The translations under genes were made by a program, and so were the position numbers. A DNA stretch of 64,000 nt from Parcubacteria group bacterium (GTDB taxonomy: Bacteria; Patescibacteriota; Minisyncoccia; UBA10092), in NCBI GenBank assembly GCA_016186325.1, contig JACPLW010000010.1, positions 22,856 through 86,855 on the forward strand, read 5' to 3'. This document shows, piece after piece, positions 50,129 through 51,523 of this stretch. The number at the start of each line of letters is the position of its first letter. Within the stretch, counting starts at the first letter, position 1. Below the pieces are notes generated by a model. It saw only the letters and a program-made list of their open reading frames with translations. It was not told the DNA's origin and did no database searches.

Positions 50129-50272
50129 CTACTATTGATTCTGAGAATCAATAGTAGGCGCGCTTAAATGAGTCATATTTTTGTAGCTATAGCGAATATT
50201 GACATTTAAGTAATAACTTGTTACCATTTTATGGTAAAAAGAGAGACTTTCTGACAAACAGGAGAGGAAGAA

Positions 50273-50512
50273 ATGCAGGTTGTCGTGGAGGTTGATGACG
50301 AATTAATGTCTAATTTAAAGAAGCTTTCTGGTTTTCACAATGACCATTTGCTCTTTCAATTTTGCCTAAAAGTTGGCGAGCGTGTTCTTAAGACGCTTGC
50401 ACGAGGCGATACTGTATTAATTGAAGTGGCAAATGGGAAGCGGCGATGTGTTGAAATAGATTTTAAGAATCTGCTTACTCAGTATGATACTAATGATGAA
50501 AAGAGGAGATAG
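50273..50512 (+). CDS. Hypothetical protein (79 aa), cassette-like
   Basis: SD aggagaggaag upstream. Followed by the 75-bp terminator module at 50543-50615. Confidence 0.35.
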   Translation: MQVVVEVDDELMSNLKKLSGFHNDHLLFQFCLKVGERVLKTLARGDTVLIEVANGKRRCVEIDFKNLLTQYDTNDEKRR

Positions 50513-50542
50513 TTAGTAGGAATGGCGCTGACAAATTTAACA

Positions 50543-50615
50543 ACACCGAGCCTGAAAGGGCTCGGTGGTTTTTGTTTTTACCCTCCTTCACCCACACTTC
50601 GCTAAAGCTTCGGAA
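50543..50615 (+). repeat. 75-bp terminator-plus-motif module, copy 1
   Basis: caacaccgagcctgaaagggctcggtggtttttgtttttaccctccttcacccacacttcgctaaagcttcgg. Confidence 0.6.
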
Positions 50616-50703
50616 AATAATTTATTTATTTTTTTAGTTCAAGGACAAATAAATTAACTAAATATGGCTTTTGAAAGCCATATTTAGTTACTATTAAGAA
50701 CTA

Positions 50704-50732
50704 TTGCTTTTTTATTTAAATTATGGTATAAT
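50704..50732 (+). promoter_or_regulatory. Strong sigma70-like promoter (TTGCTT, 17-nt spacer, TGgTATAAT) with a leader of about 160 nt before the 50908 ORF
   Basis: Read directly. The leader has complementary segments cacaaagtgat and atcgctttgtg, and a perfect palindrome aactaaatatggcttttgaaagccatatttagtt at 50660-50693. Confidence 0.5.
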
Positions 50733-50907
50733 TAAATTAGTAAAAATAAGCTCCTTATTAATATCACAAAGTGATTGTTCTAAGTATTACTGCAAGACAA
50801 AAGACAAATTATTAGCTTGGTACCGTGTAGTATTTAGAACCATCGCTTTGTGAAACCATAAACGCCAAAACCCAAGTCGCCGCTCTAAGCGGCAAGGAGG
50901 AGAAGAA

Positions 50908-51354
50908 ATGAAGATTGATGTGACCTATGTCATCACCGTCGTTGACCTTGGCGAAGATGATGGACTAGATGGTCGCTTCGTCGTTAAGGGTTTGCCAACC
51001 AGACATATTTCAATGTTCTGGAAAAAGGTTATGAGTATTCGAGCTTGCTTTCCTAGGCCGCCAAAGAAAGGCGCGCGTGAGGATGGCCGTCTACGTATCG
51101 ATTTTCTTATTCCATATGATTACGAGGAATTCTTGATAGCCAATGAGAAGATTCTTAGAATCATCAAGCGTCTTATGCCGGACGCGAAGGTTCACTATCG
51201 TCAGCTTAGTTGTTCTGGCTTTCATATGGCTGACGAAGATTATGATCCATATTATGATCTAGATGACGAGATGCTTCTCGTTGGGGCTTTTACTGAAGAG
51301 GAGCGAGATTGCCTACCGCGCTATCAGCGAGCCGAAATTCTCGGTATCCGGTGA
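50908..51354 (+). CDS. Hypothetical acidic protein (148 aa), cassette-like
   Basis: SD ggaggag upstream. Followed by copy 2 of the terminator module. Confidence 0.4.
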   Translation: MKIDVTYVITVVDLGEDDGLDGRFVVKGLPTRHISMFWKKVMSIRACFPRPPKKGAREDGRLRIDFLIPYDYEEFLIANEKILRIIKRLMPDAKVHYRQLSCSGFHMADEDYDPYYDLDDEMLLVGAFTEEERDCLPRYQRAEILGIR

Positions 51355-51377
51355 CGGTAATACCAATCAAGCTTAAC

Positions 51378-51450
51378 AACACCGAGTTCGAAAGGGCTCG
51401 GTGGTTTTTGTTTTTACCCTCCTTCGTCCACACTTCGCTAAAGCTTCAAG
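51378..51450 (+). repeat. 75-bp terminator-plus-motif module, copy 2
   Basis: caacaccgagttcgaaagggctcggtggtttttgtttttaccctccttcgtccacacttcgctaaagcttcaag. Confidence 0.6.
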
Positions 51451-51523
51451 TGGCACAATAAGGCTTCGGACGGGCAAGTAATGGCAAAAAGCGGGAAAAT
51501 CTGATATATTCATAACAGATTTT

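Follow-up and report, generated by a model that had tools for sequence, protein, structure and literature searches.

Between mltG and ligA, in a 64-kb stretch of the metagenome-assembled genome of an uncultivated groundwater bacterium of the Parcubacteria group, from an Azambacteria-like lineage (this whole stretch is referred to as the window), lie two small open reading frames (ORFs), ORF1 and ORF2, each followed by a near-identical copy of a short module. The junction that they occupy is a hypervariable accessory-gene slot, and the ORFs probably belong to two autonomous, moron-like units that would be exchanged by recombination within a conserved noncoding framework, a reading to which we assign a probability of roughly 0.6. 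Unit 1 would comprise a promoter, a short untranslated region (UTR), ORF1 and a terminator, and unit 2 a palindrome, an extended -10 promoter, a 117-nt leader RNA, a small hairpin with a Shine-Dalgarno (SD) sequence, ORF2 and a terminator. Unit 2 appears to be one instance of a conserved noncoding expression platform that elsewhere would drive unrelated ORFs. NCBI proteins that are 99-100% identical to those of the window have HYW79_ locus tags and come from a 114-kb contig. Related loci used for comparison carry labels between L001 and L070; the terminator and leader scans covered about 590 kb of window and related loci.

A hypervariable slot between mltG and ligA

The slot is bounded on the left by the conserved gene mltG (YceG family; 49109-50128, forward strand; Pfam PF02618, 1.8e-78) and on the right by ligA (51524-53524). 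The neighbors of the two ORFs (tpiA, mltG, ligA and gatC/gatA) are housekeeping genes in a chromosomal setting. The TIM-MltG-LigA synteny is kept in Azambacteria-like relatives, and the mltG-ligA spacer is not. At least 10 unrelated ORF families occupy this position across relatives, GC-rich ones included, and among the three relatives that are closest by MltG there are three different slot states, none with ORF1 or ORF2.

At one extreme, the slot is empty or nearly so in L008, L009, L012 and L067, with mltG abutting ligA or, in L067, overlapping it, and in L010 the spacer measures about 100 bp. L004/L005 have ORF1 alone in the slot, and L006/L007, short contigs that do not include mltG, have it immediately before ligA, the homologs being 76% and 72% identical. 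ORF1 is a slot resident in a number of related lineages. A 114-aa ORF accompanies an ORF2 homolog in L001, and three units (a 154-aa ORF, a PaaX-like gene and a Cys-rich 126-aa ORF) fill the slot in L011. An RluA-like ORF, with or without an ORF2 homolog, stands with a PaaX-like gene in L052, L053 and L059, and a 180-aa ORF is found in L054. In L070 and L068/L069, which are among the closest relatives by MltG (83-84% identity), a PaaX-like gene is joined by GC-rich ORFs (0.56 and 0.60, versus 0.39 and 0.43 locus-wide).

The window itself is a mosaic with respect to these relatives. Positions 50131-50553 align to the ORF1 unit of L005 (75%), and this alignment ends inside the terminator hairpin (at about 50553), similarity to L005 resuming only at the ligA promoter. 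The promoter and leader of unit 2 (50702-50906) are 84% identical to L001, and the stretch comprising the hairpin with SD, ORF2 and its terminator (50881-51416) is 70% identical to the same locus, where two copies of the hairpin and SD enclose the 114-aa cassette. A comparable pattern is seen between L006, which carries ORF1, and L054, which carries the leader and the 180-aa ORF: the two have the palindrome hpB and the promoter in common on the left, and on the right a 165-nt stretch that reaches ligA is 88% identical, the similarity starting within the terminator. These sharp breaks of homology at framework elements are consistent with exchange by transformation and homologous recombination in the flanks and are no proof of it.

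Framework elements also mark the borders of the slot. A palindrome of 14+1+14 nt just 3′ of the mltG stop codon, hpA (50129-50157), is kept after mltG in L005, L011, L053 and L070. The predicted ligA promoter, TGATATATT (51481-51524, forward strand), is kept in L005, L006, L011, L053 and L054. The same promoter can also be written as AAATCTGATATATT (51481-51526). Its -10 element is only about 13 nt from the ATG, and the ligA mRNA would therefore be nearly leaderless.

The original prediction described the segment as a repeat-bounded cassette or small acquired island and was half right. What stands is its cassette-like character: the segment is variable, accessory and different among relatives, and it was probably acquired. 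The proposed role of the module as a recombination site of the attC type does not stand; there seems to be no integron here, and the repeat is better read as a duplicated terminator. A search of the relatives for both proteins and for the module, which had been suggested as a check, found the proteins in varied contexts and the module only in the window.

The PaaX-like gene that recurs in the slot of relatives is flanked there by CCCTATAGGG-centered palindromes with covarying stems, and a solo palindrome of this type sits in the slot of L005. The window has such a gene elsewhere (24327-24896; a winged helix with a Cas2-like domain), lying within 24240-24972 between similar palindromes at 24240-24281 and 24931-24972.

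A conserved noncoding platform precedes ORF2

Upstream of the unit 2 promoter is a perfect palindrome, hpB (50655-50690), which had been described as 34 nt long and consists of two 17-nt arms around 2 nt (17+2+17); the sequence ATATGGCTT..AAGCCATAT also heads accessory units in relatives. The predicted promoter (50704-50732, forward strand) has TTGCTT, 17 nt and TATAAT, with a TG extension at 50724-50725, and is kept in L001, L011 and most of the metagenome loci described below. The near-consensus extended -10 element that had been noted between the two ORFs was recovered as TGgTATAAT at 50724-50732.

Downstream of the promoter is a predicted structured leader RNA of about 117 nt (50742-50859, forward strand), with a long hairpin, P1, at 50764-50853. 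A self-complementary leader, estimated earlier at about 160 nt, is well supported by the folding calculations, which give a minimum free energy (MFE) of -50.9 kcal/mol (z = -6.75). When public metagenome contigs were scanned for an exact 22-nt core of the leader, 16 loci were obtained, which with the window, L001 and L011 make 19 loci with 15 distinct sequences; the same scan of viral contigs gave no match. Each locus holds a single copy of the leader and empty-slot relatives hold none, and neither 589 kb of sequence nor the nearest relatives contained additional or divergent copies.

The order of elements in the leader is AAAAUAAGCUCUUUUUA, a 27-pair hairpin, a linker of 30-60 nt, often a small GC hairpin, and the SD. 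In every leader locus with upstream sequence, the -10 element lies about 10 nt upstream of the conserved AAAAUAAGCUCUUUUUA (L060 is cut off there), and the apical part of the hairpin, UAUUACUGCAAGACAAAAGACA ... UUAGCUUGGUACCGUGUAGUAUUUAGAA, is almost invariant. Standard pairs fill 97.7% of the pair cells, against 30-41% in controls with slid partners. A covariance model scores the leader loci at 126-143 bits on the sense strand versus 40-56 bits on the antisense strand (132.7 and 40.5 bits, respectively, for the window leader), and this asymmetry, together with several invariant G-U pairs, fixes the sense strand of the element.

No Rfam 15 family matches the leader at gathering threshold, the only hits being microRNA and small RNA matches at chance level, and the lack of an Rfam match also speaks against a known RNA of the T-box, signal recognition particle, 6S or riboswitch kind. 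The leader does contain UUAGCUUGGUACCGUG, which we took to resemble a T-box sequence. That identity was not borne out: there was no Rfam T-box match even at E values up to 10, and no genes related to aminoacyl-tRNA lie downstream. The leader is not a coding region either: across homologs the apical loop varies by indels of 1-2 nt, and the single ORF there extends over the promoter.

A conserved segment at the 5′ end of the leader, GCUCCUU (50750-50756), can pair with the SD, and of 13 MFE folds, 8 show base pairing between the SD and the conserved 5′ GCUCUUU, one of them only in part. The role favored by these models, which we infer from folding, would be translational control through pairing between the 5′ anti-SD segment and the SD, or else an effect of the long, nearly perfect stem on mRNA stability or processing.

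Between the leader and ORF2 is a portable junction, found in front of the ORFs of leader units and consisting of the small hairpin GCCGCTCTAAGCGGC (GCCGCT..AGCGGC) and then the SD AAGGAGGAG (AGGAGG), at 50879-50907 on the forward strand. L052 has the same junction ahead of its ORF2 homolog, and L001 and L064 have it between cistrons. About 700 nt past the leader of L058, an orphan copy of the small hairpin, SD and ATG stands directly before the terminator, apparently the remnant of a downstream cassette that was lost. The better-conserved boundary of the cassettes is the 5′ side, formed by promoter, structured leader, and hairpin with SD.

What follows the platform varies widely. At least nine unrelated families supply the first ORF downstream of the leader: the ORF2 family in the window, the 114-aa family in L001 and L064, the Cys-rich 126-aa family in L011 and L058, and an RluA-like pseudouridine synthase in L052/L065, L053, L059/L062 and L061, as well as ORFs of 56 aa (L051/L056), 100 aa (L060), 118 aa (L063), 180 aa (L054/L057) and 407 aa (L066). 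One locus, L055, has no ORF behind the leader. There, the leader (covariance-model match at 306-422, reverse strand) runs straight into an intrinsic terminator and its 5′ anti-SD-like segment is degenerate (AAGUUUUUUU), and this copy may be a stand-alone small RNA version of the element.

The platform is also found in four chromosomal contexts. In addition to the mltG-ligA slot, it occurs between rpsQ and rplN (L061 and L066), beside infC-rpmI-rplT and a GIY-YIG gene with smpB (L051/L056, L055 and L060), and between cca and gyrA (L063); six of the neighboring families were confirmed by Pfam, and rpmI, cca and gyrA were recognized from their sequences only. L061 and L066 come from the same metagenome, and in both the leader unit interrupts the ribosomal protein operon, carrying in L061 the RluA-like ORF followed by an IS200-type TnpA and in L066 a 407-aa coiled-coil, Cys-containing ORF.

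The repeated module is a terminator joined to half of a hairpin element

The near-identical module that had been noted behind each ORF, at 75 bp, is a direct repeat of 80 nt (50532-50611 and 51368-51447; 91% identical), of which the window contains only these two copies. Copy 1, on the forward strand, consists of an AACAAC A-tract, a hairpin at 50544-50567 (10 bp, GAAA loop) and a U-tract extending to 50578, followed by a tail (50579-50611) that corresponds to the truncated 5′ half of a hairpin resembling repetitive extragenic palindromic (REP) elements. Copy 2, also on the forward strand, comprises the ORF2 3′ UTR, the terminator with its hairpin at 51380-51403, and the same REP-like 5′ half. 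The hairpins begin 32 nt (ORF1) and 26 nt (ORF2) past the stop codons, and the terminator-like structure described earlier was recovered in the form of 10 pairs, 6-7 of them GC, a 4-nt GAAA loop, and then GTTTTTGTTT. A GC-rich stem-loop with a U-tract, on the sense strand and directly 3′ of an ORF, is the sequence signature of an intrinsic terminator, and the first 50 nt of the module are predicted to be the ORF2 unit's own. The 5′ arm of the GAAA-type hairpin exists in three versions (CCT, TTC and GGGTCC), all of which pair with a constant 3′ arm by way of G-U wobbles. Since pairing kept in this manner works only in RNA and only on the sense strand, these changes support a function as sense-strand RNA.

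Terminators at related units share a common frame (AACAAC, hairpin, GGTTTTTGTTTT) in which the hairpin sequence varies. The GAAA-loop type is found in the window, L001, L052 and L054, and a longer GGCGGAGAGGGGCGGGGG type in L004-L007, L011 (twice), L053, L058 and L059. In relatives, ORF1 ends in a different terminator from that of the window, of the GGCGGAGAGGGG type, and it bears the longer type in three other lineages. Neighboring units within one genome share a type, twice the GAAA-loop type in the window and twice the longer type in L011, a distribution that fits duplication or gene conversion inside the slot. In about 590 kb, both types occur only behind accessory units of the slot and never behind a housekeeping gene; the sole exception is a 12-nt pattern match in the distant locus L034, where the remainder of the terminator is missing.

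The second part of the module is of another kind. Homology with the ORF2 unit of L001 stops at 51416, just past the U-tract, and the last 30 nt of the repeat, CCCTCCTTC..CACACTTCGCTAAAGCTTC, form the 5′ half of the REP-like hairpin. The complete element, CCCTCCTTCGTCC ... CGGACGGGCAAG, occupies 51416-51478 on the forward strand and has a related copy at 22070-22114; the window has two occurrences each of its 13-mer and its 12-mer. The 3′ half of the element (..CGGACGGGCAAG, to 51478) is present only downstream of copy 2, and in copy 1 the stem-forming CGTCC is changed to CACCC. Because the 3′ half exists only after copy 2, this copy appears to be in its native setting, with the ORF2 terminator beside a complete REP-like hairpin upstream of ligA, and copy 1 would be a partial copy. 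The duplication is probably an event of this lineage that postdates the juxtaposition of the ORF2 terminator and the hairpin element.

The 80-nt stretch, made up of the 50-nt terminator and the 30-nt REP-like half, would thus have been copied to the 3′ end of ORF1 and would have displaced its usual terminator, either by recombination when the two units were joined (through single- or unequal-crossover insertion) or by later gene conversion. Once in place, the repeats may insulate both units transcriptionally and, as a by-product, could permit precise loss of unit 2 by recombination. Gene turnover in the slot would proceed by recombination in the conserved framework and the housekeeping flanks, with no dedicated integrase involved.

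Parts of the module region have looser relatives in the window. A 15-nt motif within the module, CTTCGCTAAAGCTWC, had been reported to recur at several sites, and this was confirmed in part: one further site (21484) was found at no more than one mismatch, the copy in the tuf leader requires a 1-nt insertion, and with three mismatches there are 10 matches against 4.2 expected. What the tRNA-Lys site has in common with the module region is other parts of it, CCCTCCTTCGTCC ... CGGACGGGCAAG, and the one reported upstream of ligA coincides with module copy 2. A loose hairpin family, CCCTCCTTCG(TCC) ... (GGA)CGGGCAAG, can be traced at about 21560-21591, 22070-22114, 30489-30520 and 51416-51478, always on the forward strand. 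The member in the tuf leader (30489-30520) is a UCCUCC-loop-GGAGGA hairpin whose 3′ arm is the SD itself, 11 nt before the start codon.

Copy 1 of the module is followed by an AT-rich spacer (50612-50654), the first 25 nt of which, GGAAAATAATTTATTTATTTTTTTA, recur in intergenic regions of relatives, with 96% identity over 25 nt in L008 and L011 and shorter exact matches in L010. Elsewhere in the window, upstream of a glycosyltransferase gene, about 320 nt (45600-45920) are densely packed with nested GC-rich hairpins, and the equivalent region of relatives shares GGAAAATAATTTATTT.TTTTTTTA with this spacer.

ORF1 and ORF2 are rare genes

The two ORFs, which had been called at 79 and 148 aa and as mutually unrelated, are upheld in both respects by direct comparison. 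ORF1 (50273-50512, forward strand) encodes a small lineage-specific protein and has a predicted promoter at 50199-50227 on the same strand (TTGACA, 17 nt, TACCAT, with a TG upstream of the latter), for which L004/L005 possess a homologous stretch; window positions 50195-50252 match L005 1544-1601 at 86% over 58 nt. ORF2 (50908-51354, forward strand) belongs to a rare family: a profile search retrieved just 17 clusters among 1.84 billion representative proteins. Its homologs are 66%, 52% and 50% identical, and some of them reside in unrelated neighborhoods (L002 and L003). Strong SD sequences had been claimed for the pair, and each ORF indeed has one of the AGGAG type, within SD and start contexts that are 79% alike over 28 nt.

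Neither protein matches a family in Pfam, NCBIfam, PADLOC or PHROGs, a PDB sequence search was also without match, and exact-sequence look-ups returned nothing. The structure model of ORF1 is unreliable (predicted local distance difference test score, pLDDT, of 55), its beta-alpha-alpha N terminus being predicted at low confidence. That of ORF2 (pLDDT 69, predicted template modeling score 0.67) has no significant structural neighbor. Both are genuine, though rare, genes. Neither family has relatives in viral contigs; together with the lack of viral matches to the leader and of PHROGs matches to the ORFs, this argues against a phage origin.

A composition less AT-rich than the surroundings had been attributed to the ORFs. 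When GC content and codon usage were computed, neither stood out among 64 ORFs of the window: the GC content of ORF1 (0.388, z = -0.6) falls under the gene mean of 0.417, that of ORF2 is 0.457 (z = +0.9), and the codon usage z scores are -0.4 and -1.4, respectively. With native-like GC and codon usage, composition is unsupported as a sign of recent transfer in the window.

Weighing the explanations

What the sequences establish is the layout of the locus, the variability of the slot, the conservation of the platform and the confinement of these terminator types to slot units. Several points weigh against exchange of moron-like units by recombination. The composition of the two ORFs is unremarkable and gives no sign that they were imported recently. 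The leader shows little covariation, with compensatory changes at 2 pairs, as befits a closely related sequence set whose members were all drawn with one exact 22-mer. A search for a relative near enough to place the duplication in time found none: the nearest, at 83-84% MltG identity, have other contents, and we therefore infer the order of events and the mechanism indirectly. The promoters, terminators and leader RNA are predictions, and the Y1 transposase-like protein encoded in the window leaves a transposase-driven route open.

A bolder version of the same idea, which we consider unlikely, is that the platform is a dedicated Parcubacteria device for gene capture and expression, functionally an integron without an integrase. 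ORFs would be swapped at the hairpin junctions, the platform itself would be mobile between mltG-ligA, rpsQ-rplN, infC-smpB and cca-gyrA, and the leader would impose one common signal on whatever gene it precedes.

It seems decidedly improbable that a Y1 (HUH) transposase moves hairpin-bracketed cassettes in trans, in the manner of IS200/IS605 derivatives or of REP elements and the REP-associated tyrosine transposases (RAYT). Similar direct hairpins do bracket the ORF2 unit, the PaaX-like gene and the 114-aa cassette, the last between its two copies of hairpin and SD; the REP-like elements of the window all lie on the forward strand; the leader unit of L061 is followed by an IS200-type TnpA; and the window encodes a Y1_Tnp-like (IS200-like) protein of 232 aa (62002-62700, reverse strand), 11 kb from the slot and the only mobility-type match among the ORFs scanned. 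However, this gene is accompanied by another palindrome, TTGGTGACGCCGTCACCAA, rather than by the module motif (four copies over 61963-62685, half of them flanking the ORF and the others within its coding region), and, although RAYT-like in appearance, it scores 18 bits against the NCBIfam RAYT model, for which the cut-off is 80. In addition, the identity of the repeats spans 80 nt, far past the hairpin, the G-U-preserving substitutions point to a function in RNA, and no conserved target tetranucleotide was seen, none having been searched for.

The slot could instead have held an ancestral ORF1-ORF2 pair that was differentially lost, with old repeats maintained in the window. The native-like composition, and the presence of homologs of both ORFs at the slot in different relatives, would agree with such a history. 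Yet it hardly accounts for at least 10 unrelated families in the slot, some of them GC-rich, for ORF2 homologs in the unrelated contexts of L002 and L003, or for three nearest relatives with neither ORF, and we regard it as quite improbable.

Ordinary reuse of the genome's standard terminator, with no connection to gene turnover, is very unlikely. The hairpin and U-tract are canonical, and the frame AACAAC ... GTTTTTGTTTT is common to differing terminators in relatives. But a terminator in genome-wide service, the outcome that the original prediction had set against its own reading, is not what the scans found: there are only two copies in 64 kb and none behind housekeeping genes in about 590 kb, instances being confined to slot units. 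Moreover, the repeat extends over 30 nt that are not part of the terminator, with an overall identity of 91%, and this means common descent.

Finally, an integron-like arrangement, in which the 80-nt modules would be attC-type sites and the ORFs promoterless cassettes captured by an integrase, is scarcely credible: the repeat-ORF-repeat layout and the variable content at one site recall it, and the start of both module copies happens to fit RYYYAAC, but that fit is lost in L005 and L006, the module is absent from all other slot variants, promoter-like sites that are kept in relatives precede both ORFs, and a check for an integron-type integrase and for attC folding found neither, the modules having a perfect 10-bp GNRA hairpin with a U-tract in place of a GTTRRRY core, an R″/L″-L′/R′ layout or an imperfect palindrome with extrahelical bases, and none of 22 Pfam-scanned window ORFs being a tyrosine recombinase or integrase (the other large ORFs were read by eye as ribosomal-protein or housekeeping genes).

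Other features of the window

Two further regions lie apart from the slot. At 32898-33569 (reverse strand), an ORF of 223 aa, rich in Pro and Ala and signal-anchored, runs antisense between rplC and rplD and has an SD and a terminator of its own, a striking single-gene insertion in a ribosomal protein operon (GC about 0.66 versus 0.41 for the genome); a 250-aa frame that overlaps it has no Pfam match. At 10020-15360, a proteasomal-type AAA ATPase with OB domains is followed by two genes of the Pup-ligase family, a pupylation-like set.

Relation to known systems and significance

Among known systems, the locus is closest to minimal mobile elements and morons and works like both; it differs from them in having a noncoding framework that is conserved, reused and present at several sites. 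The concept of the minimal mobile element reportedly goes back to Saunders and Snyder in 2002. In Neisseria, such elements represent alternative gene content between conserved flanks (PMC1797815). The likeness lies in unrelated contents of 1-3 genes at one syntenic housekeeping site with no mobility gene of their own, and in Neisseria the exchange is presumed to occur via homologous recombination in the flanks. By contrast, the slot described here retains a conserved, reused noncoding framework (palindrome, promoter, leader, hairpin with SD, and terminator frame), and the platform is found at other chromosomal sites as well. To our knowledge, transformation has not been demonstrated in these Parcubacteria.

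Phage morons are autonomous promoter-ORF-terminator units (PMC3594210). The units of the slot resemble them in having their own predicted promoter and terminator and in being placed between genes that are adjacent in relatives, and some inserts of relatives (L068 and L070) are strong GC outliers; on the other hand, the setting is one of chromosomal housekeeping genes with no phage genome, and the ORFs of the window are not compositional outliers. As in integron cassettes, a fixed promoter platform is followed by interchangeable ORFs separated by short hairpin-forming sequences, but there is no attI/attC architecture and, among the ORFs scanned, no integrase, and the cassettes have ordinary promoters, SDs and terminators, either their own or shared.

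REP/RAYT systems and palindrome elements derived from IS200/IS605 (PMC2817692, PMC3116915) likewise involve short, multi-copy intergenic hairpins with an orientation bias, and the window has a Y1-type gene flanked by palindromes. The REP-like half of the module is, however, not the palindrome that flanks the Y1-type gene, and its copies are few, about five related ones in 64 kb. With cis-regulatory 5′-UTR RNAs, such as riboswitches, leaders processed by RNase III and SD-sequestering leaders, the platform shares a conserved structured RNA that is kept in position just past the promoter and an SD that can pair with a 5′ segment. It differs from them in that the downstream genes share no function, in that the L055 copy has no ORF, and in the lack of an Rfam match or a ligand candidate.

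The genomes of the candidate phyla radiation (CPR, or Patescibacteria) are tiny and considered to contain few classical mobile elements, which raises the question of how they gain and lose genes. The locus would provide a concrete route, in which single-gene units turn over at a fixed slot within a conserved noncoding framework and with no integrase in the slot; the 80-nt repeat itself would be no more than a side effect of it. Of most value is the leader platform, a putative novel structured RNA motif associated with the turnover of orphan genes in CPR bacteria. By tying unrelated orphan genes into one putative regulon, the leader offers a handle on their function and expression.

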